Assembly: GCA_963805015.1 (NCBI GenBank) | Contig: CAWDSL010000026.1 | Location: 79,125-143,124 of the forward strand | Direction: 5' to 3' | DNA from: an uncultured bacterium | Lineage (GTDB): Bacteria; Acidobacteriota; Aminicenantia; Aminicenantales; Saccharicenantaceae | Length of the DNA stretch: 64,000 nucleotides | In this document: positions 5,924-27,542 of the stretch, piece after piece | How the letters are laid out: the number at the start of each line of letters is the position of its first letter | Numbering within the stretch: the first letter of the stretch is position 1 | The notes under the pieces: model-generated | The model's database searches: none | What the model saw: only the letters and a program-made list of their open reading frames with translations | Told to the model about the DNA's origin: nothing | Program-made: the position numbers and the translations under genes

Positions 5924-5976
5924 AAACGCCGTGTTCTGCAGCCGCCTCGGCTTGTGAATAGCCCAGGCACACGACC

Positions 5977-8900
5977 ATGAGGAGACCCGCCATGAAAAAA
6001 CTTCCCGCCGCCATCGCCTCAGGGATCGTTACCGTCGCCCTCTCCGCCGTCCTCGTTCTTCCCGCCGCGGGCCAGCCCGTACCGGCCGGGACCGGGAACC
6101 TCGAGGCCCGGGTCTCTTCCATCCTCGAGCGCTTCCCGGCCGGTTCCGCCGCCGTCAAGGACGCCCTGTGCTCCGAGATCCTCGGCCTGGGCCCGGCCGG
6201 ACTGGCCGAGACGCTGGCCCGCGTCCAGCCGCCCGGCGGCGCCAACGACGCGGCGGCCCGGTTCGCCGTGAACGGCTTGGCCGTTCATGTGACCCGGGCG
6301 GGAGCGGAGGCCGAACGGCTCGGTTTCGTCAAGGCCCTGCTCGCCGCTGTCGCGACGGTCCGGGACAAGGACGTCGCCGCGTTCTTCATCACCCAGGTCC
6401 AGCTCGCCGGCAGGACCGAGGCCGTCAAGCCGCTGGCCCGCTACCTCTCGAACGAGAAGTTGGCCGGGCCGGTCGCGGCCGCCCTCCAGGCGATCGGCGG
6501 GCCCGAGGCCGCCCGGGTCCTCCTCGCCGCCTTTGATAAAACTCCGGCCGGCGCCCGCGTGGCCCTCATCGACGCGCTGGGCGCGATGCGCAGCCCCGGA
6601 GCGGTGAAGAAGCTCCTCGTCCTCGCGGAGAGCGGCGAAGAAGGAGTACGCCGCGCCGCCCGCTCGGCCCTGGCCAATATCGGAGATCCGGCCGCCGGGC
6701 CCGCGCTGGCCAAGGTCCGCGTCGACGCCTCGCACGACGAACGGACCCAGGCCCCGGCCCTCTATCTCCTGTATGCCCGGCGCCTGAAGGAAGCGGGCCG
6801 GTCGCCCGAGGCGTTGGAAGCGGCCCGATCCCTCCTCGCGGCCTACGACCGGCCGGGGGAAGGCCAGGTCGCGGCCGAAGCCCTGTCGCTCCTCGTTTCA
6901 GTGCTCGGGGAAAAGGCCCTGCCCGACCTCGTCAGGGCCGTCGACAGCCCCGCCGCCGCCGTCCGCGGCGCTGCGCTGGAGATGGCCGTGAAGATCGGGG
7001 GCCAGGAGGCGACGGCCGGCTGGACCGAAAAGGCCGCAGCCTCGGCGCCCGAAGTCCGGGCGGCGATCGTCGATATGCTCGGCCGACGCGGCGACGCCGG
7101 CGCCCTGCCCTTCATCCGCGAATGCTTGGGCGACAGCGAGGGATCCGTCCGGCTCGCGGCCGTCCCCGCGGCGGTCCGTCTCGGCGGGAAGACCGTCGTC
7201 GCGGACCTCTTCGGGCTCCTCCCCGCGGCGGACAACGCCGAATCGGCCGCTTTAAAGGCCGGCCTGCTGCGGTTCGACGCCGGCACGGTCGCGCCGGAAG
7301 CCGCCCGGCTCATCGACGCGACCCCGCACCCGGGAAAAGCGGTCCTCATCGAGCTTCTCGGCGAGAAGGGGGCCCGCGACGAGATCGGGCGCGTCTTCGC
7401 CCTGGCCGGCGACGCCGATCCCGCGACCCGGGCCGCCGCGCTCGGCGCCCTGGCCAAACTCGCCGGCGAAGCCGACCTCGCCCGCCTCGTGGAGATGCTC
7501 GAGAAGGCGAGCGACGGCGACGACATCGTGAACCTCCAGAACGCCGTCGCCGCCGCCGCGCTCCGCGACGCAACGGCCGCGACGCGCGGCGCCGCCCTCG
7601 TCGGGCTCCTGAGAAGCGCAAGCCCGGGCCGAAAAGCCGTCATACTCCGCGTCCTGCCCAGGGTCGGAGGGGACAAGGCCCTGCACGCCGCCGTCGAGGA
7701 GACCGGAAACACGGACTCCCAGGTGCAGGCCGCCGCGGTCTACGCCCTCTCCCAATGGCCCGATTTCGCGGCGGCGGGCGATCTCCTGCATATCGCGACG
7801 ACGACCGCGAGCAAGCGCTATCGCCTTCTGGCCGTCGAGGGCTACGTCCGGCTGGTCGGCCGGGCCAACATGACCGGGCCGCGCAAGATCGCGCTCTTCG
7901 AGAGCCTGCTCGCCCAGCCGTTCGACGATGCCGACAAGAAGCTCGTCGTCGCCGGCGTCTCGGCCGTCCGCGAACCCGAGGCGCTCCGCCTTGCCGGCCG
8001 CTATCTCGACCATCCCGTTCTCGGGGAGACGGCGTCGGCCGGCCTGCTCGAATTGGCCTCCGAACAGGCCCCGCACGAGCGCTGGCTCTCGGGCCACGAA
8101 GCTTATTCTCTCCTCCGCCGCGTCCAGGCCAAGGCCGCCGCCGACCCGGCCGAAAACGCCCGGATCGACGGTCTTATCCGGGACCGCCTCCGCCAGGGCG
8201 GCTTCGTGCCGCTCTTCGACGGCCGCACGCTCGATGGCTGGAAGGGGCTCGTCGCCGACCCGCCGGCCCGGGCCAAGATGACGCCCACCGATCTGGCCGC
8301 CGCCCAAGCCGCGGCGGACGGGCGGATGCGGGCCCATTGGCGGATCGTCGACGGCGCCCTCGTCTTCGACGGTCAGGGCGAAAGCCTTTGCACCGCGTCC
8401 GATCACGCCGACTTCGAGCTCCTCGTCGATTGGAAGATCGAGAAGGGGGGCGACAGCGGCCTCTACCTTCGGGGCTCGCCCCAGGTCCAGATCTGGGACT
8501 CGGCCGCCAATCCCGCGGGCTCCGGCGGCCTCTACAACAACCAGAAGGGGAAGAGCCAGCCTCTCGAGAAAGCCGACCGCCCCGTCGGCGAATGGAACGC
8601 CTTCCGCGTCGTCATGATCGGCGAGCGGGTCTGGGTCTATCTCAACGACAGGCTCGTCGTCGACAACATCGTCCTCGAGAATTACTGGGAGAGGGAGAAG
8701 CCGATCTATCCCCTGGGACAGATCGAGCTCCAGGCCCACGGCAATCCGCTCTATTTCAAGAACATCTACATCCGCGAGATCCCCCGCGACGCGGCCGCGC
8801 CGGGCCTCTCGCAGGCCGAGGCCGACGAGGGGTTCGCTGCCCTCTTCGACGGCCGCGACCTCGAGGGCTGGACCGGCGACACCAGGGGCTATGCCGCGGA

Positions 8901-9403
8901 GGACGGCAAGATCGTGATCAGGCCCGAGCTCGCGAGCGGGAATCTCTATACAGCGAAGGAATATGGCGATTTCGTCCTTCGCTTCGAGTTAAAGCTCACG
9001 CCGGCCGCCAACAACGGCCTGGGCATCCGCGCTCCGCTCGAGGGCGACGCCGCCTACGCCGGCATGGAACTCCAGATCCTCGAGGACGGCTCGCCCGTCT
9101 ATTGGAACCTCAGGCCCTACCAGTATCACGGCTCGATCTACGGCGTCGTTACCGGCGCGGCGCGGATTCCTCAGGCCGCCGGGGGAATGGAACACCGAAG
9201 AGGTCACGGTCAAGGGCCGGCGGGTCACCATCGTCGTCAACGGGGCGACCATCGTCGACGCCGACCTCGACGCCGCGAGCGCCGGCGGGACGATCGACGG
9301 CAACGACCATCCCGGATTGAAGCGGGCCTCCGGGCACATCGGCTTCCTGGGCCACGGCTCGCTCGTCGAATTCCGGAATATCCGGATCAGAGAGTTCAAG
9401 TAG
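5977..9403 (+). pseudogene. HEAT-repeat protein with two C-terminal DUF1080 (3-keto-disaccharide hydrolase-like) domains, frame broken near 9151
   Basis: Signal peptide, long Ala/Leu-rich HEAT-like repeats, then two DUF1080 units (GFVPLFDGRTLDGWKG.., GFAALFDGRDLEGWTG..). After ..HGSIYGVV an extra base (about 9151) shifts the frame. The +1 frame gives [31 protein letters not shown]...[23 protein letters not shown], stop at 9401-9403. Confidence 0.8.
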
Positions 9404-9461
9404 GAAGGCGGGCATGCCCGGTTTCGCCGTCGAAAACAGGCTGACGCGACCGGAAAAATGG

Positions 9462-13283: not shown

Positions 13284-13465
13284 GGGGAACTCCTCTCGGG
13301 ATGGACCGGCCCGGAGAAGAGCGGCTCTGCGATCCGGGTCATGAGCAGAGGTTATATATCAAAGGCGGCCGGGCGGTCAAACGGGCCGGGGGGCTGGACA
13401 TTTGGCGCCGTTCCGCATACCATCGGCGGCAAGACCAGACCGACGGCAGAGAACGGAGGAACTCC

Positions 13466-15055
13466 ATGAGCGGTCTCCTCGACAAGGAACGGATCGTCGC
13501 CGGGCCGGGCTTCAACCGCTGGCTCGTCCCTCCCGCCGCCCTGGCCATCCACCTCTCGATCGGCATGGCCTACGGCTTCAGCGTCTTCTGGCTGCCCTTG
13601 AGCCGGGCCATCGGCATCACCCAAGCGGCACCGGGCGACTGGAAGATCAGCACGCTCGGCTGGATGTACACGCTCTTCTTCGTCTTTCTCGGCGGGTCGG
13701 CCGCCGTTTTCGGCCGCTGGCTCGAGCGCAACGGGCCGCGCAAGGCGGGTGTCGCCGCGGCCTTCTGCTGGGGCGGCGGCTTCTTCATCTCCGCCCTGGG
13801 CGTCCATCTCCATCAGATCGCCCTGCTCTGGATCGGCTCCGGCGTCATCGGCGGCTGCGGGCTGGGGCTGGGCTACATCTCGCCCGTGTCCACCCTGATC
13901 AAGTGGTTCCCCGACAAGCGGGGCATGGCCACGGGCATGGCCATCATGGGCTTCGGCGGCGGGGCCATGATCGGCGCCCCCCTGGCCGACCGGCTCATCA
14001 AGCTCTACGCGACGCCGGCCTCGGTCGGCGTGAAGGAGACGTTCCTGACGATGGGAGCGATCTACTTCGTGGTCATGCTGGCCGGGGCCTTCCTCTACCG
14101 GATCCCGCCGGCGGACTGGAAGCCGGCGGGCTGGACGCCGCCGGCCAAGAAGGCCGGCGGCATGATCACCCACGGCCATGTCCACATCGACGCCGTCCAC
14201 AAGATCCCCCAGTTCTGGCTCCTCTGGGCCGTCCTGTGCCTGAACGTCAGCGCCGGCATCGGCATCATCGGCATGGCCTCGCCCATGCTGCAGGAGGTCT
14301 TCGGCGGCAAGCTCATCGGCCTGTCCGGCTCTCTGGCGTCCCTCTCGGTCGCGGACAAGGTCCGGACGGCCTCGATCGGGGCCGGCTTCGCCGGTCTGTT
14401 GAGCCTCTTCAACATCGCCGGCCGCTTCTTCTGGGCCTCCATGTCCGATTTCATCGGCCGCAAGCGAACCTACATGATCTTCTTCGCCCTGGGCGCCTGC
14501 CTCTACGCCGCCGCGCCCTTCGCCGGCGACATCAAGAGCGTGACCCTGTTCGTGGCCCTGTTCTGCCTCATCCTGACCATGTACGGCGGCGGCTTCGCCA
14601 CCGTCCCGGCCTATCTGGCCGACCTCTTCGGCACGCAGTTCGTCGGGGCCATCCACGGCCGTCTGCTGACGGCCTGGTCGACGGCCGGCGTCCTGGGACC
14701 GGTCCTGGTCAACTACATCCGGGAATACCAGCTCAAGCGGGGCGTGCCCAACGAATCCGCCTACAACACGACCCTGTACATCCTGGCCGGCCTGCTGCTG
14801 CTCGGATTCCTGGCCAACCTCCTGGTCCGGCCGGTCGCGGCCAGGCATTTCATGACCGACGAGGAGCTGGAGAGGGAACGGCGGACGGGCCACGCCAAGG
14901 CGGGCGTCACGGCCACGGCCGTCGCTTCGCCCCAGGCCTGGCATCCGAACCGGTCGTCCTGGGTCGCCGTGGCCGCGGCTTGGACGGTCATCGGCCTGCC
15001 GCTCGCCTGGGGCATCCTGAAGACGGCGGAAAAAGCGGCGGCCCTCTTCAAATAG
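13466..15055 (+). CDS. MFS transporter, oxalate/formate antiporter (OFA) family
   Basis: ATG at 13466 after GGAGGA. The N-terminus NRWLVPPAALAIHLSIGMAYGFSVFWLPL is typical of OFA-family MFS. About 12 hydrophobic segments. Confidence 0.8.
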   Translation: MSGLLDKERIVAGPGFNRWLVPPAALAIHLSIGMAYGFSVFWLPLSRAIGITQAAPGDWKISTLGWMYTLFFVFLGGSAAVFGRWLERNGPRKAGVAAAFCWGGGFFISALGVHLHQIALLWIGSGVIGGCGLGLGYISPVSTLIKWFPDKRGMATGMAIMGFGGGAMIGAPLADRLIKLYATPASVGVKETFLTMGAIYFVVMLAGAFLYRIPPADWKPAGWTPPAKKAGGMITHGHVHIDAVHKIPQFWLLWAVLCLNVSAGIGIIGMASPMLQEVFGGKLIGLSGSLASLSVADKVRTASIGAGFAGLLSLFNIAGRFFWASMSDFIGRKRTYMIFFALGACLYAAAPFAGDIKSVTLFVALFCLILTMYGGGFATVPAYLADLFGTQFVGAIHGRLLTAWSTAGVLGPVLVNYIREYQLKRGVPNESAYNTTLYILAGLLLLGFLANLLVRPVAARHFMTDEELERERRTGHAKAGVTATAVASPQAWHPNRSSWVAVAAAWTVIGLPLAWGILKTAEKAAALFK

Positions 15056-15064
15056 ACGGCGGGA

Positions 15065-18000
15065 TCAGGCCGCGCCGAGAAAATCGAAGCTGATCTTCTT
15101 CTGGATGTCGGCGATCTGGGCGAAGGCCTGCTTGAGCAGGGTCACCTCGATGTGGGTCAATTCACGGGGATCGATGTCGTTGCCCGGGCTGGCGTCGCGG
15201 TCGATGGCCCGGACCTGGTGGGCCAGCCGCAGCTGCATGAGGTAATCGTAGACCTTGACCGCTTCGTCGTGGAGGCTCTCCCGTAACGCGCCCACCTCCA
15301 GCAAGGCGTGGAGACGGTCGAGGGTGTTGACCTCGGCGACGCCGTGGCGGAAAGCGTAGAGCCGGGCGAAATTATTGACCGGCATCAGGGCGTCCTTGAT
15401 GTTGAAGGTCTTGGCGCCCTCCTTGCCCTCTTCGAGGACGATGTGGCCGAAGAAGCTCAGGGGAGCCTTGTACTGCAGGGTGTACTGGGCGTAATGGAGG
15501 AGGAAGGGCGGCTCCTGGCGCAGGACCTCGTCGATGTGCCGGCGGAGCTCGGCGGCGAACTCCGGCTCGCCCTGGACGGTCCGGAAATCGAAGAAGATCT
15601 TGAGGTCCAGGATGTCCTTGGGCTCGGCCGTCCGGAGCCAGCCGGCGAAATACGCTTTCCACGTCCTCAGGGGCCGGCACCAGCGGGGGTTCGAGGCCAT
15701 GACCTCCCCCAAGCAGAGCGGGTATCCGGCCAGGGCCAGGCCGTCGGACACGAACCGCCCGACCTTCAGGAAATAGGCCTGGACGTCTTCCTCTTCGCGC
15801 TCGGGGACGTCCTCGAAGACGATGGCGTGGTCCTGATCGCTGGCCAGGGTCTGTTCCTCGCGGCCCTCGCTCCCCAGCGCGAGGAAGGCGAACCGGGCCG
15901 GGGCCGGCCCCAGCTCGGCGGCCGCCAGCTCGAGCAGCCGGATCACGGCGGCGTCGGTCACCGCCGTCACGGCCCGGGTGATGTTCCGGGCCTTGGCACC
16001 GCCCTCGACCAGGACCTTGGCCAGGCGCGGCAGGCCGCGGCGCGCGGCGGCGATGGCGTCGGGCGACGCGGCGTGACGGATCTCCTGGGTCAGGACGGCC
16101 AGGGAGTAGCGGTGGAAAAGGAGGAGATCGCGGTTGCGGACGATCCCGGTGACGTCGCCTTTTTCGTCCCGGACGAGCAGGTGGTCGACGTCCTTCTCGC
16201 GCATGGCCAGGATGGCTTCGTAGACGAGGGCCTGGCTCCCGATCGAGACCAGCGGCGCGCTCATGATCGCGCGCAGCGGGCTCTCCCCCGCCAGCCCTTC
16301 GGCGACGAGCCGGGCCCTGATGTCGGTATCGGTCACGAGGCCGACCGGCTCTCCCTGGGCCGTGACCACGACGGCGCTGGCCCCGCGGCCGGTCATCAGA
16401 GCGGCCCCCTTGGCCACGGTGTCCTTGAGGTCGCAGAAGACGGGCGGTCCGGCCAGCGGGCCCACGGGCTCATGGAGGAACATCAGCGAGGCCTGGAGGT
16501 CCCCGATGAGGCTCTCCCGGTCCCTGTCCCGGCGCGCGGCCGAGTTCCGCCCCCGCTCGCCCGACCGCAGGGGCCGGGCGATGAGGACCAGGCCCTCGCG
16601 GCCGGCGAACGAGATCCGGCTCGACGACAGGGCGACGTCGACCGCGCCGCCGTCGGTCCGCCTGAGAACGGTCTCCTCCGCGTTCAGCCCGGCCGTCTCG
16701 TGGACCCGGACGGCCGCGTCCGCGGCCAGGATCTCGTCGAGGTCGAGCAGGCCGAGCCCGTTCTCGGAGACGCCGAGCAGGGCGAGCATGGTCGGATTGG
16801 CGAAGGCCGGACGGCCCTCGAGCACCATCAGGGTCCCCTCGGTCGCCGATTCGACGAGCGTCCGGTACTTCTCGTGCGATTCCCTGAGCTCGTCCTCGGC
16901 CTTGGCCCGCCGGCGCTCGAGGCGCATGCTCTGGGCCGCCACGAACAGAAGCAGCAGGGCGCACAGGGCGGTGATGCCGATGGAGACGCTGACGAACCGT
17001 CGCGGCCATGGCCCGGATCTCGCCCTGGACGTCCTCGATATAGAGGCCGGTGCCCAGGATCCAGCCCCAGGGCGTGAACTTCTTGATGAAGGACTGTTTG
17101 GGCTCGAGGCGGTCCGGGTCGTCTTTCCACTGCCAGACGTACTCGACGTAGGCCTCGTCCCGGTCGCGGAGGATGTTGGCGAACTCGACGAAGATGCGGA
17201 CGCCGCGGGGGTCCTGGAAGTCGGAGACGTCCCGGCCGTCGAGATCGGTCCGGTAGGGATGCATGATCATCCGGACGCCGAGATCGGTGATCCAGAAATA
17301 ATCCTTGCCTTCGTTGCCGTAGCGGAGTCCGCGAATGCGCTCGGCCGCGGCTCTCTTCGCTTCGTCGAGCGGGATGCGGCCGGCCCGGGCCTCGGCGTCA
17401 TACTCGGCCAGGATGCCCGAAGCGACGTTGGTCAGCTCCCGGATGGTGTCCCGCTTGCGCTCGAGGAGCCGCTGCTCGAAGGCCGGGATGAGCACCCGGA
17501 AGAGAAAGACGACGAACAGCGTGATGGCCAGCGCCGTCGGCAGGAGGATGCGCAGGAGGAAGGACCTCCGGCCCGGACGGGGCACGTCCCGGTGAGCGGC
17601 GGGCTCGCCGGGGACCGGACCGCCGGCCGCTCCCGAAGCCTTTTTCAGGAGGGCATCCCGGAACTCCCGCCACAGCGCCAGGGGCATCTCCATGGCGGTT
17701 TCCGTCGAGCCCGGCAGGCCCGGCCCATGGTAGTCGCTGCCGGCGCTGACCACGAGCCCGTGCCGCGAGGCCAAGGCGACGAGCTCGCGGCTGAGGCTCT
17801 CGGGGTATCCGGCGTAAAAGGCCTCGAGGCCGTCGAGGCCCCAAGCCCTGTACTTTTCGACGAGCGCCTCGAGGGCGGGGAGGTCGGGGCGCGCCCCGGG
17901 CACGACCGGATGGGCGAGGACGGCCAGCCCGCCCGCGCCGTGGAGGACCCGGATGGCCTCGGCCGGCGGGACGGGTCCCGGCACGGCCTTGGCCAGGAGC

Positions 18001-18323
18001 GCCTTCAAGGCCTTGTCCTCCGGGTCGAACCCGTAGCCGAGGATGTGCTTCTCCCCGGCCTCGCGGTCGACGACGGTCAGCTCGACGCCGGCGACGAAGC
18101 CGACCCCTTTCTTCCTCGCGGCTTCGCGGAAGGCGGGCAGACCGTCGATGGTGTCGTGGTCGGTCAGGGCCGCGGCCCGGACCCCGGACGCCGCCAGCCG
18201 GTCGGCCAGCTGGGCCGGAGCGAGGTCCCCGTCGCTGAGCTGGGAATGGCCGTGAAGATTGACGCGGAGGAATTCGGACACGGGGCTTTGTCTCCCCTCC
18301 CCGGGGCCGCCCAACCATAGCAC
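15065..18323 (-). pseudogene. multidomain sensor protein: PHP phosphoesterase - TM - Cache-like - TM - PAS - CBS pair - DUF294 nucleotidyltransferase; one frameshift near 17000
   Basis: ORFs 16470..18323 and 15065..16942 join as ..IEDVQGEIRAMA|RRFVSVSIGITALCALLLLFVAAQSMRLE.. after one base is corrected. PHP motif VNLHGHSQLSDG; Cache-like GKDYFWITD; CBS pair and DUF294 core in the C-terminal ORF. Likely start is the GTG at 18281 (VSEFLRVNLHGHS). Confidence 0.75.
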
Positions 18324-18475
18324 CTCCGGCGAAAGACTGTCAATAGCCTGGAAACGCCTTGATTTTTGCCGGGACCTGTGAGATAAAGGCGGGCATCACG
18401 AACGGCCTTTCGCGCCCCCTCCGACGGGGCGCGGAATGACCGGTCGAAGATGCGGATAAGGGAGGGAGAGAGCCC

Positions 18476-18768
18476 ATGTTGCATGAGCCAGCCGCGAAGT
18501 CGGGACCGGATCCCGCTTTTCTGTTCAAGAGGCGCCTGGGCGCCTGGATGTTCGTCCTCTACGCGCTCGTCTATACCGGATTCGTGGTCGTCAACCTGGT
18601 CCGGCCGGGCGCCATGGAAGCGTGATCTTCGGCGGGTTGAACCTGGCCGTCGTCTACGGCTTCGGCCTGATCATCTTCGCCCTCGTCCTGGCCCTCATCT
18701 ACAGCCGGGCCTGCGGCCGCCGCGAGAAGCGTCTCCACCAGGCCGATCCCCAGGGAGGCCGGTCATGA
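18476..18768 (+). pseudogene. DUF485 (YjcH-like) small membrane protein, frameshift near 18621
   Basis: ATG 18476 after GGAGGGAGAG gives MLHEPAAKSGPDPAFLFKRRLGAWMFVLYALVYTGFVVVNLVRPGAMEA, then a stop. The next frame continues VIFGGLNLAVVYGFGLIIFALVLALIYSRA.. and ends in an ATGA overlap with the actP start. Position before actP is classic. Confidence 0.75.
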
Positions 18769-20690
18769 ACGTCCTGTCGATCGTCCTGTTCGTCCTCTTC
18801 GTCGCCTTCGTCCTGGGCATCTCTTTCTACTTCGCCGGGCGGGCCAAGTCGGCCAGCGGGTATTACGCCGCCGGCGGCCGCATCCACTGGGGCGTCAACG
18901 GCATCGCTTTCGCCGGCGATTACCTCTCGGCCGCCTCGTTCCTGGGCATCTGCGGCATGATCGCCACGGCCGGATACGACGGCTTCCTCTACTCCATCGG
19001 CTACCTGGCCGGCTGGATCGTCGCCCTGTTCATCGTCGCCGAGCCGCTCAAGCGCCTGGGCAAGTACACGTTCACCGACGCCCTGGACGCCAATTACAAC
19101 CACCGCGGCATCAAGCTCATGGCCGCCATCAGCACCTTGCTCGTCTCCATCTGCTACCTCATCCCGCAGATGGTCGGCGCGGGCGTCCTGGTCACGCCGC
19201 TGCTCGGCCTGCCCCACGCCGTCGGGGTCATCCTCGTCGGCCTCATCGTCATCACCATCGTGGCCACGGCCGGCATGACCTCGACGACCTACGTCCAGTT
19301 CATCAAGGGCGCGCTCCTGCTCGTCTTCTCGTTCGTCCTGGTCACCGTCGTCCTCATCCGGGGCCTCTCGACCAAGCCCGACCAGGGCGGCCGGGTCCCC
19401 TACCGGGAATTCCGGACGCTGGCCGCGACGGAATCGGAGGGCGTCCTGGCCCTCGACGACCCGGCCTGGCAGATCGCCGCCGTGCGCGAGGTCAAGGGCC
19501 TCCGCTTCGTCAAGCTCCTGAGCGACGGCCGCGAGAGCTGGTGGAGGGCGGAGAAGGACGCGGCGACCGGGGCCCTGAAGCTCCAGGAATCCCAGTTCAC
19601 GGCCCGCTTGGCCGACGGCAGCCAGTGGGTCAACGGCAGCCCCGCGTCCAAGGAGAACGAGCTGGCCCAGGTCGGCAACATGGAGTCGATCGCGGGCAAG
19701 ACCGGGCCCGAGGCCGCGACCGGGAGCCTCAATCCCTTCAAGTTCCTCTCGCTCGTCGGCGACCCGAAAAGCCGGATCAAGCTTTGGAAGAACGCCTCCT
19801 TCGACGACAACGGCGGCCGGGTGACGGTCTACTATCCCGTCTTCGCGGCCGGCAACAAGGTCCTCCGGCCGGGCCAGCGCTTCAAGGTCGAGGGGACGAC
19901 GACCGACCGGATCGACTTCCTGTCGCTCATGCTGGCCCTGTTCCTGGGCACGGCCGCCCTGCCCCACATCCTCATCCGCTACTACACCGTCCCCAGCCCG
20001 GCCGCGGCCCGGAAATCGACCATCGTGGCCATCGCCGCCATCGGCTTCTTCTATATCCTGACCCTGTTCATGGGCCTGGGGGCGATGACCAACGGGACCG
20101 TCAACCTGCTCGACGACAACATGTCCGCGCCCCTGCTGGCCCGCTCGTTCGGGACCTTCCTGTTCTCGATGATCTCGGCCATCGCCTTCGCCACCGTGCT
20201 GGGCACGGTCAGCGGGCTGATCATCGCCGCCTCCGGCGCGGTCGCCCACGACCTGCTCGACCGCTTCGGCAAGGTCATCAAGAACGACAAGCAGAAGGTC
20301 AACGCCGGCAAGATCGTCGCCTTCGCCGTGGGCGCCCTGGCCATCGTCCTGGGGATCATCTTCAAGGGCGTCAACGTCACCTTCCTGGTCGGCCTGGCCT
20401 TCGCCGTGGCGGCCTCGGCCAACCTGCCGTCGATCGTCATGATGCTGTTCTGGAAGAGGACGACCGCCCAGGGCATCACCGCCTCGATCTTCGTCGGCGT
20501 CTTCTCGTCGATCGGCCTGATCCTCTTCTCGCCGACCATGTTCGAGCTCTACGGCAAGGACCCCCTGACGGCCCCGTTCCCCCTGAAGAATCCGGGCATC
20601 GTCTCCATCCCGCTGAGCTTCCTGACGCTCGTCGTCGTGTCCCTTCTCACCCGCAAAAAAGCGAAGAGCGAGGCGGCCCCGGCCGTCTGA
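18765..20690 (+). CDS. actP: cation/acetate symporter (solute:sodium symporter family)
   Basis: Starts MNVLSIVLFVLFVAFVLGISFYFAGRAKSASGYYAAGGRIHWGVNGIAFAGDYLSAASFLG, a typical ActP N-terminus. About 13-14 TM segments. Preceded by a DUF485 gene. Confidence 0.85.
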   Translation: MNVLSIVLFVLFVAFVLGISFYFAGRAKSASGYYAAGGRIHWGVNGIAFAGDYLSAASFLGICGMIATAGYDGFLYSIGYLAGWIVALFIVAEPLKRLGKYTFTDALDANYNHRGIKLMAAISTLLVSICYLIPQMVGAGVLVTPLLGLPHAVGVILVGLIVITIVATAGMTSTTYVQFIKGALLLVFSFVLVTVVLIRGLSTKPDQGGRVPYREFRTLAATESEGVLALDDPAWQIAAVREVKGLRFVKLLSDGRESWWRAEKDAATGALKLQESQFTARLADGSQWVNGSPASKENELAQVGNMESIAGKTGPEAATGSLNPFKFLSLVGDPKSRIKLWKNASFDDNGGRVTVYYPVFAAGNKVLRPGQRFKVEGTTTDRIDFLSLMLALFLGTAALPHILIRYYTVPSPAAARKSTIVAIAAIGFFYILTLFMGLGAMTNGTVNLLDDNMSAPLLARSFGTFLFSMISAIAFATVLGTVSGLIIAASGAVAHDLLDRFGKVIKNDKQKVNAGKIVAFAVGALAIVLGIIFKGVNVTFLVGLAFAVAASANLPSIVMMLFWKRTTAQGITASIFVGVFSSIGLILFSPTMFELYGKDPLTAPFPLKNPGIVSIPLSFLTLVVVSLLTRKKAKSEAAPAV

Positions 20691-20707
20691 CCGGACGCGC
20701 AAAAAAA

Positions 20708-20750
20708 GGGGCCGTCCCGGTCCGCGGTCATCGCGGTCCGGGACGGCCCC
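20708..20750. terminator. bidirectional intrinsic terminator between convergent actP and the AOS gene
   Basis: GGGGCCGTCCCGGTCCGCG-gtcat-CGCGGTCCGGGACGGCCCC: a 19-bp stem with one mismatch, flanked by AAAAAAA upstream and TTT downstream. Confidence 0.7.
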
Positions 20751-20770
20751 TTTCGATACTTACCTGTCCT

Positions 20771-22018
20771 TCACATCCCGTACTTGGCGATGATGTCCTG
20801 CTTGGTCTTGCCCAGGATGTCGAACGTCTTGCCGACCTTGGTGAACGCCGCGAGCGCCTTGTCGAGGTGGTGCGTCTCGTGGCCGGCCGAGATCTGGGTC
20901 CGGATGCGGGCCTGGCTCTGGGGAACGACCGGGAAGAAGAAGCCGATGGCGTAGATGCCCTCGTCGTAGAGGGCCCGGGAGAAGTCCTGGGCCAGCTTGG
21001 CGTTGAAGAGCATGACCGGGACGATGGGGGTGTCCCCTTCCTTGAGGACGAAGCCGGCCTCGGTCAGGCCCTTGCGCCAGTAGGCGGCGTTCCGCTCGAG
21101 CTTGTCGCGCCGCTCCGTCGACTTGGAGATGATGTCCATGACCTTGAGCACGCCGGCCACGACCACGGGGGCGATGGTGTTGGAGAACAGGTACGGCCGG
21201 GCCCGCTGGCGGCAGAGCTCGACCAGCTCGCGGCGGCCGCTGACGCAGCCCCCGGAGGCCCCGCCGAGGGCCTTGCCGAAGGTCGTGGTGATGACGTCCA
21301 TCTGGCCGACGACGCCGCACTTCTCGTGGGTGCCCCGGCCGGTCTTACCGATGAAGCCGGAGGAGTGCGATTCGTCGACCAGGACCATGGCGTCGTATTT
21401 CTGGCAGACCGCGGCCATCTCGTCGAGCTTGGCCGTGTCCCCGTCCATGGAGAAGACGCCGTCCGTGACCACCAGCTTGAGGCGCTTGTCGGCGTGGAGC
21501 TGCAGCTTCTCCTCGAGGTGTCCCATGTCGGAGTGCTTGATCGTGTCGTGCATGGCGCTGCAGAGGCGGATGCCGTCGACGAGCGAGGCATGGACGAGGC
21601 GGTCGGAGATGATGACGTCGTCCTTGGTCAGGATGGCCTCGAAGACGCCGGCGTTGGCGTCCATGCAGGAGGGGAAGAGGAGCGTGTCCTCGGTCCCCAG
21701 GAACTCGGTCAGCCGGTGCTCGAGCTCGCGGTGGATGTCCTGGGTGCCGCAGATGAAGCGGACCGAGGACATGCCGTAGCCGCGCGACTCCAGCCCCTCG
21801 TGCGCCGCCTGGACCACGTCGGGATGGCTCGACAGCCCGAGGTAATTGTTGGCGCACATATTGATGACCTTCTTGAGAGGGGCGCCGGCCGGGAACTCGA
21901 CCTCGATGTCGGCCGCCTGGGGCGAGTGGATGAACCGCTCCTGCTTGAAGAGTCCCGCCTCCTGGATGCCCTTGATCTGGGCCTGGTAAGTGCCGCGGAT
22001 CTTGTCGCTGTAGGCCAC
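20771..22018 (-). CDS. PLP-dependent alpha-oxoamine synthase, Kbl-like paralog (glycine C-acetyltransferase / serine palmitoyltransferase family)
   Basis: 415-aa ORF with a GTG start. Family motifs NNYLGL, SVRFICGTQ, TDGVFSMDGD, TFGKALGG (PLP lysine). Carries a C-terminal extension ..DILGKTKQDIIAKYGM that I do not recall in E. coli Kbl. Confidence 0.85.
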   Translation of the reverse strand: MAYSDKIRGTYQAQIKGIQEAGLFKQERFIHSPQAADIEVEFPAGAPLKKVINMCANNYLGLSSHPDVVQAAHEGLESRGYGMSSVRFICGTQDIHRELEHRLTEFLGTEDTLLFPSCMDANAGVFEAILTKDDVIISDRLVHASLVDGIRLCSAMHDTIKHSDMGHLEEKLQLHADKRLKLVVTDGVFSMDGDTAKLDEMAAVCQKYDAMVLVDESHSSGFIGKTGRGTHEKCGVVGQMDVITTTFGKALGGASGGCVSGRRELVELCRQRARPYLFSNTIAPVVVAGVLKVMDIISKSTERRDKLERNAAYWRKGLTEAGFVLKEGDTPIVPVMLFNAKLAQDFSRALYDEGIYAIGFFFPVVPQSQARIRTQISAGHETHHLDKALAAFTKVGKTFDILGKTKQDIIAKYGM

Positions 22019-22022
22019 GGTG

Positions 22023-22280
22023 CTATCCCTTCTTGGCCACGAAGCGCTCGACGAGCGAGACGATCTTGTTGACCGAGTCGAAGGCCTCGGGCGTGGCCTC
22101 GTCGTCGGGGATGGCGATGGCGTACTTGTTCTCGAGGAAGCGCTTGAGCGAGACCATCGAGAACGAGTCGACGATGCCGCCCGAGATGAGGGGCGTATCG
22201 TAGGTCAGCGGCTCGCTGTCGTCCTCCAGATACTCCTTGGTGACGTAGTTCAGGACGATGTCCTTGAGTACTTCGGCCAT
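22023..22280 (-). CDS. stand-alone acyl carrier protein
   Basis: 85-aa acidic protein with the phosphopantetheine-attachment motif GGIVDSFSMVSL. Lies 4 nt upstream of the AOS start. Confidence 0.8.
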   Translation of the reverse strand: MAEVLKDIVLNYVTKEYLEDDSEPLTYDTPLISGGIVDSFSMVSLKRFLENKYAIAIPDDEATPEAFDSVNKIVSLVERFVAKKG

Positions 22281-22300
22281 GATGACTCTCCTTTTTTATG

Positions 22301-24004
22301 TCAATCGTTTTCGAGCGTGGACGTGTCGCCGATCTCCTCGCCCCATTCCTTGGCGTGGAGGAGCCGGCGCATGATCTTGCCGCTCCGCGTCTTGGGGAGC
22401 GACGGAACGAACTCGATCTCCTGGGGCATGGCCAGGGGCGAGAGCTTCTTGCGGATGAAGTTCATGATCTCGAGGTCGAGGTCCTTGCTGGCCGTGAAGC
22501 CGGGCTTGAGCGTGACGAAGGCCTTGACCACCTCGAGGTTGATCGGGTCGGGCTTGGAGACGACGGCCGACTCGGCCACCGCCGGATGCTCGAGCAGGGC
22601 CGATTCGACCTCGAAGGGGCTGACCAGGTGGCCGGCCGTGTTGATGATGTCGTCGTCGCGGCCGGCGAACCAGAAGTAGCCGTCGGCGTCGAGCTTGGAC
22701 CGGTCGCCGGTGATGTACCAGCCGTTTCGGAATTTCTTATTGAAAGCCTCTTCGTTGTTCCAGTAGGTCCGCATGCGCGAGGGCCAGTCGAACTTGAGCC
22801 CGACCAGGCCGATCTTGCCGTGGGTCGTGTAGGGCTCGTTCTTGACCGGGTCGAGGACGGTCCCGGTGATGCCGGGGAAGGGCTTGCCCATGGAGCCCGG
22901 CCGGACCTCCATGTCCGGGTAGTTGCTGATGACGATGGAGCCCGTCTCGGTCTGCCAATAGGTGTCGTAGAAGGGCTTGCCGAAGACCTTCTGCGACCAG
23001 ACGACGGCCTCGGAGTTGAGCGGCTCGCCGACGCTGGCCAGGTGGCGGAGCGAGGACAGGTCGAACTTCTTGACGATCTCGTCGCCGGCCTTCATGAGCG
23101 ACCGGATGGCCGTCGGGGCCGAGTACCACATCGTCACCTTGCGCTTCTCGATCCATTTGTACCAGGCCTCGGCCGAGAAGCCGGCGTCGAGGACGCACTG
23201 GGTGACGCCCAGGGCGAAGGGGGCGATGATGCCGTAGGACGTGCCCGTGACCCAGCCGGGATCGGCCGTGCACCAGTAGATGTCGTCGTCGCGGATGTCG
23301 AGGACCCACTTGGCCGTCAGGTACTGGGAGATGAGCGAGTAGTGGACGTGCTTGACGCCCTTGGGCATGCCGGTCGTGCCCGAGGTGTAGTGGAGGACCG
23401 AGGGTGACTCGGCCGTCGTCGGGTGGACGTCGAACCGCTCGACGGGCGCGGACTTTTCGAGCGAGAAGGCGACCTCGCGGTCCTTGAGCGGCGTGACGCC
23501 GTCATGGTCGACGATGACGATGTGCCGGAGGTGGGGCAGCTTGTCCAGGATCTTGCGGACCTTGGGGGCATGCTTCTTCTGGGTGATGACGGCCGAGGTC
23601 TCGGCGTTGGCCAGGCGGACGAGGAGCGACTCGTCGCCGAAGGCCGAGAAGAGCGGCTGGGCGATGGCCCCGGTCTTGAGGATGCCCAGGAAGCCCAGGT
23701 AAAGCTCGGGGATGCGGTCCAGGAACAGGCAGACGCGCTCCTCGGGCTTGAGGCCGAGTCCGCGCAGGAAGGAGGCGATGGTGTTCGAGGCCAGGCGGAT
23801 GTCGTTATAGGTGTAGGTCTTTTCCGCCCCGGTGAAGCCTTCCCAGTAGAGGGCGACCTTGTCCCCCTTGCCCTGCTGGCAGATGCGGTCGGTGCAGTAC
23901 CAGCCGATGTTGATGGCGTCGCCGGGCTTCCAGCCGAGCTCCTTCTCGGCGATGGCCCAGCTGAAGTCCTTGACGCGTTCGTCGTAGGAGCCGATGTTCG
24001 ACAT
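22301..24004 (-). CDS. AMP-forming acyl ligase of the acetyl-CoA synthetase (AcsA) type
   Basis: Start MSNIGSYDERVKDF (ATG 24004, GAGAGAGGAA upstream). AMP-binding motifs YTSGTTGMPKG, TGDR. C-terminal tail LPKTRSGKIMRRLL..GDTSTLEND as in true acetyl-CoA synthetases. Confidence 0.85.
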   Translation of the reverse strand: MSNIGSYDERVKDFSWAIAEKELGWKPGDAINIGWYCTDRICQQGKGDKVALYWEGFTGAEKTYTYNDIRLASNTIASFLRGLGLKPEERVCLFLDRIPELYLGFLGILKTGAIAQPLFSAFGDESLLVRLANAETSAVITQKKHAPKVRKILDKLPHLRHIVIVDHDGVTPLKDREVAFSLEKSAPVERFDVHPTTAESPSVLHYTSGTTGMPKGVKHVHYSLISQYLTAKWVLDIRDDDIYWCTADPGWVTGTSYGIIAPFALGVTQCVLDAGFSAEAWYKWIEKRKVTMWYSAPTAIRSLMKAGDEIVKKFDLSSLRHLASVGEPLNSEAVVWSQKVFGKPFYDTYWQTETGSIVISNYPDMEVRPGSMGKPFPGITGTVLDPVKNEPYTTHGKIGLVGLKFDWPSRMRTYWNNEEAFNKKFRNGWYITGDRSKLDADGYFWFAGRDDDIINTAGHLVSPFEVESALLEHPAVAESAVVSKPDPINLEVVKAFVTLKPGFTASKDLDLEIMNFIRKKLSPLAMPQEIEFVPSLPKTRSGKIMRRLLHAKEWGEEIGDTSTLEND

Positions 24005-24027
24005 GAGCGATTCCTCTCTCGTGGGGA

Positions 24028-25022: not shown

Positions 25023-26498
25023 CTATTTCGGCGCTTCGCCGAGCTTGATGCCTAAGGCGTCGGCGACGCCCTTGCCGTAGGCCTTGTCGGCCTTCAGGCA
25101 GTTGCCGATGTGCCGGAGCTTGACGGCCTTCGGGCGCATCGCCCATGTCGGCCGCGGTGTTCGCGAAAAGTGCCTTCTGTCTGGGCCGGCTTCATCAGCC
25201 GGAAGAGCTTGCCCGGCTGGGTGTAGTAATCGTCGTCGTCCTTGCGGAAATCCCAGCGGTCGGCGGCGCCCTCGAGGGCGAGCGGCGGCTCGGCGAAATC
25301 GGGCTGTTCCTTCCATTCGTCGTAGCTGTTGGGCTCGTAGCCGAGCGTGCTCCCCTGGTTGCCGTCGACCCGCATCTGGCCGTCCCGGTGGAAGCTGTGG
25401 ACCGGGCAGCGCGGCGCGTTCACGGGGATGAGGTGGTGATTGACCCCCAGGCGGTAGCGCTGGGCGTCGCCGTAGGAGAACAGCCGGCCCTGCAGCATCT
25501 TGTCCGGCGAGAAGCCGATCCCGGGGACGATGTTGGCCGGGTTGAAGGCGGCCTGCTCGACGTCGGCGAAGTAGTTGTCCGGGTTGCGGTTGAGTTCGAC
25601 GACGCCCACTTCGATGAGCGGGTAGTCCTTGTGGTACCAGACCTTGGTCAGGTCGAACGGATTGTAGGGCATCTTGGCGGCGTCCTTCTCCGGCATGACC
25701 TGGAAATACATCGTCCAGCGGGGGAAATCGCCCTTCTCGATGCTCTCGTAGAGGTCGCGCTGGTGGCTTTCGCGGTCCCTGCCGACCAGGGCCTCCGCTT
25801 CCGCGTCGGTCAGGTTCTTGATGCCCTGCTGGGTCCTCAGGTGGAACTTGACCCAGAAGCGCTCGTTCTTGGCGTTAAGGAGGCTATAGGCGTGGCTGCC
25901 GAAGCCGTGCATGTGCCGGTAGGTGGCCGGGATGCCGCGGTCGCTCATGACGATGGTCACCTGGTGCAGGGCCTCGGGCAGGGAGGTCCAGAAATCCCAG
26001 TTGTTCCGGGCGCTCCGCAGGTTCGTGCGCGGGTCCCGTCTTGACGGCGTGGTTCAGGTCGGGGAACTTGAGCGGGTCGCGCATGAAGAAGACGGGCGTG
26101 TTGTTGCCGACCAGGTCCCAGTTGCCCTCTTCCGTGTAGAACTTCATGGCGAAGCCCCGGATGTCCCGTTCCGCGTCGGCCGCGCCGCGCTCGCCGGCGA
26201 CCGTCGAGAAGCGGATGAACAGGTCGGTCTTCTTGCCCACGGCCGAGAAAACCTTGGCCTTGGTGAACCGCGTCACGTCCTTGGTGACCTTGAACGTGCC
26301 GAAGGCGCCCGAGCCCTTGGCGTGCATGCGGCGCTCGGGGATGACCTCCCGGTCGAAATGCCCCAGCTTCTCAAGGAACCAGACGTCCTGGAGCAGGGCG
26401 GGGCCGCGGGGCCCGGCCGTCATGGTGTTCTGGTTGTCGACGACGGGCGCACCGGCGACGGTCGTCAGCTTCTTTTTGCTTTCGCTTTTCTTTGCCAT
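25023..26498 (-). pseudogene. monofunctional heme catalase (small-subunit type) interrupted by three frameshifts
   Basis: Start [33 protein letters not shown] (ATG 26498, AAGGAGGAAG upstream). The catalase sequence continues across three frame changes at about 26039, 25180 and 25131 (pieces in ORFs 25884..26822, 25094..25960, 25023..25316). Ends ..[33 protein letters not shown]. Confidence 0.85.
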
Positions 26499-26536
26499 GT
26501 CTTCCTCCTTCTTATTTATTCGATGTGCCGGCCGGC

Positions 26537-27115
26537 TCAATAGTTCTCGGCCAGGATCTCGTAGTAGGCCCGGGGGTGCTTGCAGGCCGGGCACAGGGCC
26601 GGCGCTTCCGGGCCCTCGTGGACGTAGCCGCAGTTGGTGCAGTGCCACTTGACGGGCGCCGGGCGCTTGAAGACCTGGCCGGTCTCGATATTCGCGGCCA
26701 GCTTGCGATAGCGCTTCTCGTGGAATTCCTCCACTTCGGCGATCTCCTTGAAGGAGGCCGCGACCTCCGGGAAGCCCTCGGCCCGGGCGGTCTTCTCGAA
26801 CCCGGCGTAAAGGTCGCTCCATTCCATCTTCTCGCCGGCCGCCGCGGCCTCGAGGTTGGCCTTGGTGTCCCCGATCACGCCGGCCGGGTAGGCGGCGGTG
26901 ATCTCCAGATCGCCCCCTTCCAGGTGTTTGAAGAAGACCTTGGCGTGCTCCTTCTCGTTCTCGGCGGTCTCCGTGAAGATGGCGGCGATCTGTTCGTAGC
27001 CCGCCTTACGGGCCACTCCGGCGAAATAGGTGTAGCGGTTGCGAGCCTGCGACTCCCCGGCGAAGGCCTTCAGCAGGTTCTTCTCGGTCTCGGTGCCCTT
27101 GATGGATTTGCTCAT
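26537..27115 (-). CDS. rbr: rubrerythrin
   Basis: 192-aa ORF. Ferritin-like diiron N-domain ([22 protein letters not shown]..) plus a C-terminal rubredoxin motif CTNCGY..CPACKHP. Confidence 0.9.
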
Positions 27116-27128
27116 GCGTCATGACTCC

Positions 27129-27542
27129 TTAAGGATTATTTTTTAGCGATGGCCGATGGCAGTCCGCGCACCGGCCCCGGAATTCCGTCTGATGCCCGGA
27201 AACGATGAACCCCGTGCGTTTCGAGATCCTGTCGTCGAGCCCCGGGTCGACGGGCTCGTCCAGGTCGTAGACCCGCCCGCAGGCTTCGCATCGGAAGTGA
27301 TAATGGGCGCCCTGGCAAATCTCATACCGGGACAGCGTGCCGCGGATGTCCAGGACCGATACCTTCCCGGTCCCGATCAGGACCTGCAAGTTGCGGTAGA
27401 CCGTGCCTTTGCTGATATTCGGGATGACCTTGCGGACGGAGTCATAAATACGGTCGGCCGTCGGATGCGATCTCGTTTTCCCCAGGAAGTCGAGGATGGC
27501 CTTCCGCTGCTTGGTATCTCTAGGGGCCTTATTGATATTCAT
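27129..27542 (-). CDS. Fur-family transcriptional repressor, PerR-like
   Basis: 137-aa ORF. Winged-helix N-domain (RKAILDFL..HPTADRIYDSVRKVIPNISKGTVYRNLQVL), then a metal-site HYHFRC..C and C-terminal CxxC. First gene of the operon with rbr and the catalase. Confidence 0.8.
   Translation of the reverse strand: MNINKAPRDTKQRKAILDFLGKTRSHPTADRIYDSVRKVIPNISKGTVYRNLQVLIGTGKVSVLDIRGTLSRYEICQGAHYHFRCEACGRVYDLDEPVDPGLDDRISKRTGFIVSGHQTEFRGRCADCHRPSLKNNP

Follow-up and report, generated by a model that had tools for sequence, protein, structure and literature searches.

A stretch of 64,000 nt of DNA from an uncultured bacterium of the order Aminicenantales (hereafter the window; G+C ~70%) carries, on its minus strand, two overlapping open reading frames (ORFs) of 617 aa (16470..18323) and 625 aa (15065..16942) that share ~470 nt and that are the subject of this analysis. 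Coordinates are those of the window and residue numbers, unless stated otherwise, are those of the 1085-aa mechanical translation of the gene after repair. The two ORFs are one gene, split by one extra base at ~17000. Once that base is removed, the gene (15065..18281, minus strand) encodes a protein, probably of 1071 aa, in which an N-terminal PHP phosphoesterase domain, a transmembrane (TM) helix, a single-Cache (sCache) sensor, a second TM helix, a PAS domain, a pair of CBS domains, a DUF294 nucleotidyltransferase (NTase) domain, and a DUF294_C domain follow one another. The sensible reading of the 617-aa ORF ends at ...YIEDVQGEIRAMAA and gives way to an Arg/Pro/Gly-rich out-of-frame tail, and the frame of the 625-aa ORF carries ...RFVSVSIGITALCALLLLFVAAQSMRLERRR... 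upstream of its first start codon. The frames switch at GCCGCG-A-CGGTTC (~16997-17000), and deletion of one base there fuses both ORFs into the 1085-aa translation. A DNA alignment with six related loci revealed exactly one surplus base in the window at ~17000, every blastn comparison (four loci) returned an uncompensated one-base insertion at 17000-17002, and the repaired junction ...EIRAMAARFVSVSIGITAL... (AMAARFVSVS) aligned without gaps to 22 intact homologs. A one-base repair near 17000 yielding a protein of about 1070 aa with this order of domains had been put forward in an original prediction made from the DNA letters; the alignments bear out the repair and a Pfam scan recovered the domains, with PHP and DUF294 both above their cut-offs and PAS_8 just under.

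Because the window holds at least four further uncompensated indels, the frameshift (a single-base insertion, GCCGCG-A-CGG, at 16997..17002 on the minus strand) is most likely an artefact of assembly and not a property of the gene. Other window-specific uncompensated indels lie at 9151, ~18620, 25128/25180, and ~26000, and a frame plot of G+C at third codon positions (GC3), together with ORF translations, placed the DUF485 gene in two frames and the catalase gene in at least three. Were the frameshift genuine, the locus would be a pseudogene or a natural split pair, made up of a membrane protein (PHP-Cache) and, from a start near 16927-16942, a soluble one (PAS-CBS-DUF294). Such a split is consistent with a database record of the C-terminal half as a separate 620-aa protein from an assembly (P0034) and with the position of the indel outside any homopolymer run, but is improbable given that the other uncompensated indels fall in neighboring conserved genes (DUF485, catalase with two or more, and a HEAT-repeat gene), that a sister-strain protein 98% identical to this one (P0038) reads through the 17000 site and is broken further downstream, and that an 86% identical protein (P0025) is broken at a third, different place. 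Moreover, the break falls at the start of the second TM helix and leaves a 170-aa out-of-frame tail, and the alignment showed no decay of catalytic residues on either side of it. Programmed frameshifting was considered and rejected, as a slippery run is lacking at the site, the relatives keep the frame, and several other indels occur in the window.

Indels were also noted in other genes of the window and in a related contig. The catalase gene (25023-26440, minus strand) is spread over three ORFs, with its N-terminal part in 25884..26822, its middle in 25094..25960, and its C-terminal end in 25023..25316; the one-base insertions at 25128 and 25180 were seen in comparison with L014 and are a further sign of an indel-rich assembly. 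At 9151, near the 3' end of a HEAT-repeat/3-keto-disaccharide-hydrolase gene (5962-9444, plus strand), a one-base insertion is present relative to all four relatives and the GC3 frame switches. L014 itself (CAVUQU010000004.1), a contig of a related metagenome-assembled genome (MAG), shows ~30 isolated one-base insertions over 5 kb when compared with the window (19096-23740), and from this contig the long-contig MAGs of the lineage appear heavily hit by indel errors.

The mechanical ORF starts at 18323; the true start is probably GTG 18281, giving a real protein of ~1071 aa, because the N-terminus read from that codon (MSEFLRVNLHGHS...) is the same as that of P0038 and near that of P0003 (MTDLFRVNLHGHS...). 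GTG 18281 is preceded by a promoter-like TTGACA-18-TATGGT with an extended TG (18314..18343, minus strand) and then by a GGAGG box. The promoter-like element was found once against 0.1 expected occurrences, and it overlaps the mechanical start.

Pfam profiles matched the repaired protein at PHP (residues 23-93; 41.4 bits against a cut-off of 26.4), sCache_2 (288-439; 116.2 against 25), CBS in two stretches (the best at 684-734; 57.3 against 24), DUF294 (764-902; 156.7 against 21), and DUF294_C (939-1081; 128.3 against 22.5). The PAS domain, predicted to be cytoplasmic (16553..16873), is borderline, with PAS_8 (residues 484-530) at 20.0 bits against a cut-off of 21.8 and TIGR00229 at 21.5 against 22.9; homologs carry the PAS matches PF00989/PF13188. 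On the minus strand of the window, the PHP metallophosphoesterase domain, likewise predicted to be cytoplasmic, occupies 17664..18275 and is followed by an Arg-rich cytoplasmic stretch and TM helix 1 (FLLRILLPTALAITLFVVFLFRVL; 17493..17564; read from the sequence and conserved in the alignment), the sensor with its extracytoplasmic, C2/C3-carboxylate-type pocket (17007..17462), TM helix 2 with the frameshift at its start (FVSVSIGITALCALLLLFVAAQS; 16928..16996), the CBS pair directly upstream of the NTase (16091..16444), the NTase domain (PF03445; 15617..16033), and the helical, putatively substrate-binding DUF294_C domain (PF10335; 15080..15508). The hydrophobic helices on either side of the Cache domain (~254-277 and 443-465) have Arg-rich stretches on their outer sides, a distribution from which the Cache domain is predicted to face the outside of the cell and the two catalytic modules the cytoplasm. 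In an alignment of 23 sequences with 47-88% identity, the PHP metal ligands H24, H26, D31, H56, E81, H93, H138, D197, and H199 are invariant, as are G817-S-x-G820-R821-x-E823, D829-x-D831, and D912 of the NTase. Both domains therefore appear to be under selection as active enzymes.

The best sequence matches of the Cache domain in the PDB were 4k08 (the Adeh_3718 sensor, E 6e-37) and 5g4y (PscD, E 2e-29). The Adeh_3718 sensor was crystallized with acetate, and PscD binds glycolate, acetate, propionate, and pyruvate via Y90, H103, Y143, and K156, with the ligand sandwiched by W92 and W145 and with F126 behind it; all seven contact residues are identical in McpP and Adeh_3718 (PMC5062169). In the PDB search alignment, PscD Y90/W92/H103/F126/Y143/W145/K156 correspond to Y342/W344/H355/F378/Y395/W397/K409 of the present protein. 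The prediction of a C2/C3 carboxylate as the Cache ligand is well supported, because these seven contact residues map over and are invariant in the 23-sequence alignment; this agrees with the original prediction, which had proposed small-molecule, possibly carboxylate, control and an added extracytoplasmic sensor. The domain is thus shared with the sCache chemoreceptors PscD, McpP, and Adeh_3718. However, their output is the signaling domain of a methyl-accepting chemotaxis protein, whereas here it is a pair of enzymes.

The fused architecture is not unique to the window; it is a widespread family found in at least seven phyla. At E <= 1e-10, 829 proteins were retrieved by a protein search; of the first 120, almost all are 1070-1270 aa long with the full domain set, and more than 100 intact proteins, 40-88% identical, share the whole architecture and read through the ~17000 site. 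A scan of one genome per GTDB species yielded at least 576 relatives, of which the best 80 loci were classified; neighboring ORFs were clustered, the clusters were named with Pfam, and all 80 loci were searched again with local hidden Markov models. A total of 37 loci are PHP-fused (match to the query from residue ~1-56) and are hosted by Aminicenantes, Hydrogenedentota, Holophagaceae, Anaerolineae/Chloroflexia, Spirochaetia, Tepidisphaeraceae, and Geopsychrobacteraceae. The remaining 43 are PHP-less (match only from residue ~235-300) and are hosted by Bacteroidota, Planctomycetota, Lentisphaerae, Kiritimatiellia, Solibacter/Bryobacter, and NC10. The PHP domain is thus in-chain in 37 of 37 fused and in none of 43 PHP-less loci, and a separate Metallophos gene within 300 bp on the same strand shows the opposite distribution (0 of 37 fused loci; 29 of 43 PHP-less loci, or 21 of the 31 with full flanks). 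This Metallophos partner is a full-length, calcineurin-like protein of ~250 aa encoded upstream in Bacteroidota and downstream in the Planctomycetes-Verrucomicrobia-Chlamydiae (PVC) group, Acidobacteria, and NC10. Ancylomarina sp. DW003 (L075) is among the cultured bacteria with the Metallophos form, which would be amenable to genetics. Searches of PDB and NCBIfam with Metallophos partners returned only spurious matches to designed proteins and weak similarity to YfcE/PdeM, such that a subfamily is not assignable. The PHP-less proteins with this partner share the TM-sCache-TM-PAS-CBS-DUF294 body (33-44% identical over ~250-1081) and the symporter neighborhood of the fused form, but have the separate Metallophos protein in place of the fused PHP domain. 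Among loci with full flanks, a sodium:solute symporter (SSF) gene lies within 3 kb in all 27 fused and in 21 of 31 PHP-less cases, and the symporters are accompanied by DUF485 or DUF4212.

Two further neighbors were noted among the Cache-type loci. In Carboxylicivirga sp. RSCT41, a SatP/YaaH (Gpr1_Fun34_YaaH) acetate/succinate channel (L065:7277-7855) precedes the PHP-less DUF294 gene and no SSF is present, making this a third transporter family at the position. A conserved protein of 416-448 aa without a Pfam match is encoded beside both fused and PHP-less DUF294 genes (L087:6684-7946, L045:5776-7122, L016:11247-12698, L067:11263-12513, L003:10251-11501); its signal peptide and C-terminal ...YYFF suggest an outer-membrane beta-barrel. 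A relationship of this protein to a BBP2_2-like porin neighbor (L035, L047, L052) was rejected, as hhalign detected none.

The classical members of COG2905 (PA3233/PA3232 and PP_0354/PP_0353) share with the present protein the core of CBS pair, DUF294, and DUF294_C, a phosphoesterase partner, and a place beside DUF485-actP or DUF4212-SSF and acs. They were sampled in nine annotated replicons (Vibrio, Paracoccus, Skermanella, Hymenobacter, Cytobacillus, Shinella, Ruegeria, Methylocella, and P. aeruginosa), where the genes encode cNMP_binding-CBS2-DUF294-DUF294_C. An annotated 3'-5' exonuclease was adjacent or one gene away in eight of the nine (RNase_T was confirmed with Pfam for two), and DUF485-actP or DUF4212-SSF was directly upstream in six; a plasmid of P. 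aeruginosa shows the PA3235-PA3232 order. The sensor of the classical type is thus a cytoplasmic cNMP-binding domain and its partner a separate DEDD exonuclease gene, whereas the present protein is membrane-anchored, with TM-sCache-TM-PAS as the sensor and PHP fused in-chain. Pfam gave no cNMP_binding match in the repaired protein, and PHP-TM-sCache-TM-PAS stands in its place. In alphaproteobacterial classical loci (L089:6861-9166; L093:5828-8047; L094:5821-7781), the exonuclease is long (479-646 aa) with an N-terminal region lacking an assignment, and a small response regulator or a ~175-aa hypothetical protein separates it from the DUF294 gene, hinting at further components.

No RNase_T-like ORF was detected in any of the 80 Cache-type loci (phmmer with two seeds, from which very divergent exonucleases could escape), nor was an RNase_T-like gene detected among the window neighbors scanned. 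The switches of partner follow sensor type and lineage, and the complementarity of PHP and Metallophos is without exception in the 80 loci. With PHP in-chain, an adjacent Metallophos, or RNase_T according to the class of locus, three unrelated phosphoesterase folds (RNase_T, PHP, and calcineurin-like) occupy the same partner position, once as a fusion. The property common to the partners is therefore that of a phosphoesterase and not that of a 3'-5' exonuclease. The context given in the original prediction, a DnaQ-like exonuclease beside a sensor-CBS-DUF294 protein near actP, is what most of the classical replicons contain, and its example of PA3232-PA3235 is matched by the plasmid and by papers describing PA3232-PA3235 and PP_0353/PP_0354. 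Its proposal that the nuclease had been replaced by a fused PHP domain stands as far as the replacement is concerned, with the correction that the PHP domain need not be a nuclease. Similarly, its Rosetta-stone argument for a functional pair is confirmed and extended by a third partner, Metallophos, with the amendment that the pairing is of an NTase with a phosphoesterase.

In the window, the gene is divergent, across 195 bp, from a DUF485-symporter pair, such that the actP neighborhood is kept, as had been predicted. The first gene of the pair (18476..18767, plus strand) encodes a DUF485/YjcH-like small membrane protein and has a one-base deletion at ~18618-18622 relative to four relatives; after repair it scores 42.3 bits against a Pfam cut-off of 28. 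The second (18765..20690, plus strand) encodes an ActP/MctC-like SSF symporter with an insert of ~160 aa (~19359..19847) between the SSF halves that has no Pfam match. Symporters beside fused genes in other phyla are similarly long, at 617-700 aa versus ~550 for ActP. A regulatory role, or a role as target, is possible for the insert. An acs gene for acetate-CoA ligase lies beyond the symporter (22301..24006, minus strand; NF003313, 752 bits against a cut-off of 729).

A PDB sequence search found no solved structure matching the DUF294 part. An AlphaFold (AF2) model covers the last 411 residues (predicted local distance difference test, pLDDT, 84; predicted template modeling score, pTM, 0.81), and a Foldseek search of the PDB with this model returned only four matches at E <= 1e-3, namely DrrA/SidM, the GlnE N-terminal domain, and two chains of the GlnE adenylylation domain (E-values include 4e-8 for 6yx5_B, 6e-8 for 1v4a, and 7e-7 for 3k7d). 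NCBIfam gave a weak GlnE match for the protein, and Pfam places DUF294_C in the GlnE/GlnD/KNTase_C clan with the GlnD and GlnE helical domains. In the model, DUF294 and DUF294_C thus look like a GlnE/DrrA-type, that is, protein-adenylyltransferase-like, fold. The combination of an NTase with a helical substrate-binding domain is shared with GlnD, GlnE, and DrrA/SidM (by fold for GlnE and DrrA, and by Pfam clan), whose opposing activities are HD in GlnD, a second NTase in GlnE, and PPM in SidD, the counterpart of DrrA, versus PHP here. Sequence identity to GlnE/GlnD/DrrA is ~12%, and the sensor of the present protein differs in being extracytoplasmic.

By PDB and NCBIfam matches, Cv1693 and RNase AM are the closest relatives of the PHP domain, whose best family matches in NCBIfam are 3',5'-nucleoside bisphosphate phosphatase and RNase RNM. 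All nine ligands of the trinuclear metal site of YciV/TrpH/RNase AM and Cv1693 are present and correspond to RNase AM H13, H15, D20, H45, E72, H83, H198, D255, and H257. However, the ~65-aa insertion domain of the YciV type is missing (PDB alignments skip chain residues ~109-174), and the HPGRY arginine is gone, AHPGRY of 2yb1, 9etk, and 7ug9 reading AHPVVP here. In the known enzymes the insertion domain forms the 5'-phosphate pocket, and the HPGRY arginine is R201 of RNase AM (residue roles from PMC9410882). Because both are absent and because scores fall far under the equivalog cut-offs of NCBIfam (117 against 400 for NF041577; 94 against 375 for NF047791), the domain thus appears to be a distinct subfamily with a more open active site and not an orthologue of YciV, and it need not be a nuclease. 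The best family matches could suggest that the domain is an ordinary housekeeping adenosine 3',5'-bisphosphate (pAp) phosphatase or nanoRNase that was fused by chance and that does not cooperate with the NTase. This is very improbable, in view of the low scores, the missing insertion domain and arginine, the retention of the fusion across at least seven phyla, and the exact complementarity of the fused PHP to an adjacent Metallophos gene in PHP-less relatives.

Together, these data are brought into a proposal that is the best supported of the readings considered and that we hold at about even odds (probability ~0.5), namely that the protein is a bitopic membrane signaling enzyme with two TM helices that acts as a carboxylate-gated nucleotidyl writer/eraser switch on monocarboxylate uptake. 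The periplasmic single-Cache domain would bind a C2/C3 carboxylate (acetate, glycolate, propionate, or pyruvate), and the two helices would pass the signal to the cytoplasmic modules, that is, to the N-terminal PHP domain and, via PAS and a nucleotide-sensing CBS pair, to the C-terminal NTase. The NTase would write a nucleotidyl (AMP/UMP-type) mark on a target that is probably located in the adjacent uptake/activation module (DUF485 and the ActP-like symporter, possibly Acs), and the PHP domain would remove this mark by hydrolyzing the phosphodiester bond. The binding of ligand and the energy charge would then balance writing against erasing, and uptake of carboxylates would be tuned accordingly. 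What we infer in this scheme is which substrate is marked, in which direction regulation runs, and that the two activities are controlled reciprocally. Such a switch would parallel GlnD, which combines an NTase with an HD hydrolase and sensor domains; in GlnD, as in the present protein, writer, hydrolase, and ligand-sensing domains are found in one polypeptide.

Genetic data from the classical systems fit this proposal. In P. putida, deletion of pp_0353 (RNase_T) impaired growth on pyruvate, as did deletion of actP-I, and deletion of pp_0354 (NTase) did not (PMC9927547). Such a pattern would follow from a mark that inhibits and a hydrolase that lifts the inhibition. Cofitness of a gene of the COG2905 cluster with a DUF4212/SSF symporter has been reported (Price et al., 10.1101/072470), and a role of PP_0354 in protein modification has been suggested independently in a 2026 preprint.

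A second interpretation of the pairing is that DUF294 makes a diffusible nucleotide signal (an oligonucleotide, linear or cyclic, or else a modified nucleotide) according to carboxylate and energy status, that PHP, RNase_T, or Metallophos degrades it, and that a separate receptor controls the symporter and acs, as in GGDEF-EAL systems or those of cGAS/DncV-like nucleotidyltransferases (CD-NTases). The association of a synthase with a phosphodiesterase, for which three hydrolases are interchangeable, fits the turnover of a small phosphodiester, the nearest PHP relatives hydrolyze pAp and short 5'-phosphorylated oligonucleotides, and enzymes of the RNase_T fold include oligoribonucleases. Nevertheless, we consider a second messenger unlikely. 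First, the Foldseek PDB matches included no cGAS/CD-NTase, GGDEF-like, or oligoadenylate-synthetase structure and were headed by protein adenylyltransferases. Second, no conserved receptor gene was seen in the clustered neighborhoods, and the PHP domain has lost the insertion domain and arginine that bind the nucleotide 5'-phosphate in Cv1693/RNase AM. Finally, PADLOC gave no defense-system match for the fused protein P0001 or for the C-terminal half encoded in the window. An anti-phage reading of the NTase-nuclease pair, similar to cyclic-oligonucleotide-based anti-phage signaling systems (CBASS), was likewise rejected, given the lack of a PADLOC hit and a neighborhood that is metabolic.

A third interpretation places the activities on RNA, with nucleotides added by the NTase to the end of one particular RNA (the mRNA of actP/acs, a tRNA, or a small RNA) and trimmed off by PHP, RNase_T, or Metallophos, resulting in post-transcriptional control of uptake. 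Exoribonuclease activity is known for both RNase T and RNase AM (YciV); degradation of mRNA by PP_0353 has been put forward as a speculation (Henriquez et al.), as has a requirement of the COG2905 gene for symporter expression (Price et al.). Editing of RNA ends is nonetheless decidedly unlikely, as the model resembles neither CCA-adding enzymes nor poly(A) polymerases, none of which was among the Foldseek PDB matches, and a terminal uridylyltransferase (TUTase) was listed only at a probability of 0.2. Moreover, RNase_T enzymes act 3'-5' and YciV-type PHP enzymes 5'-3', hence not on the same RNA end, no RNA-binding domain was found in the protein by the Pfam and NCBIfam scans, and anchoring in the membrane would be odd for an RNA editor.

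Returning to the writer/eraser switch, several points weigh against it. The P. putida phenotypes are mild, and a later preprint gives moderate effects for both genes. Among the PHP-less loci, 14 of 43 have no recognizable adjacent phosphoesterase, the 1235-aa fused proteins of the Armatimonadota type are not beside DUF485-actP, and the loci share ancestry, such that the counts cannot be treated as independent. The structural similarity to GlnE/DrrA is moderate (template modeling scores of 0.5-0.6 at ~12% identity), and aminoglycoside NTases, which modify small molecules, come next in the Foldseek list. RNase_T and YciV-type PHP enzymes are known above all as nucleases, with nucleic acids as substrates, and to the best of our knowledge there is no de-AMPylase of the RNase_T or PHP folds. 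The literature searched (DUF294, COG2905, PA3233, PP_0353/4) contained no biochemical characterization of any DUF294 protein.

The order of the remaining genes around the locus, including a major facilitator superfamily (MFS) transporter and kbl-small ORF-acs, is the same in Aminicenantes relatives. The MFS transporter, of the lactate/oxalate-formate type (13301..15055, plus strand; NF049980, 308 against 320), is convergent with the 3' end of the DUF294 gene, and kbl (20771..22018, minus strand) lies between the symporter and acs. Between kbl and acs is a small ORF (22023..22280, minus strand) of 83-85 aa that has no Pfam match and is conserved in Aminicenantes relatives (L003:2608-2859; L009:4098-4355). 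In a 56%-identical relative, a Pat/YfiQ-like protein of 828 aa (CoA_binding-Succ_CoA_lig-ATP-grasp_5-GNAT) is encoded two genes from the fused gene (L003:11555-14041, L004:9032-11518); enzymes of the Pat/YfiQ type acetylate Acs. Further away, a rubrerythrin-like ORF with a C-terminal CxxC...CxxC (26537-27115, minus strand) and a Fur/PerR-like ORF (27129-27542, minus strand) lie beside the catalase gene and, from their translations, suggest an oxidative-stress cluster.

The gene in the window is genuine and looks like an ordinary member of its family, which is widespread but carries only generic labels in databases. The pair of DUF294/COG2905 and exonuclease sits in acetate/pyruvate uptake operons of Pseudomonas, Vibrio, Paracoccus, and many other bacteria and is among the strongest targets of MxtR/ErdR (CrbS/CrbR); forms that are PHP-fused or partnered with Metallophos were not described in the literature searched. 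The fusion, the threefold displacement of the partner, the GlnE/DrrA-like fold of the model, and the acetate-type pocket turn the vague annotation of an NTase with a nuclease into a specific and testable writer/eraser hypothesis. More tentatively, and with less confidence than is attached to the switch itself, it is possible that DUF294 proteins at large are writers of a previously unrecognized reversible nucleotidylylation (of the AMPylation/UMPylation type) that gates uptake of acetate, pyruvate, and propionate, that RNase_T, PHP, and calcineurin-like folds were recruited independently as its erasers, and that the fused protein is a self-contained sensor-writer-eraser that reads extracellular carboxylate directly. 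If true, this would add a new layer of post-translational control to the uptake of short-chain fatty acids and would define a new family of de-nucleotidylylases.

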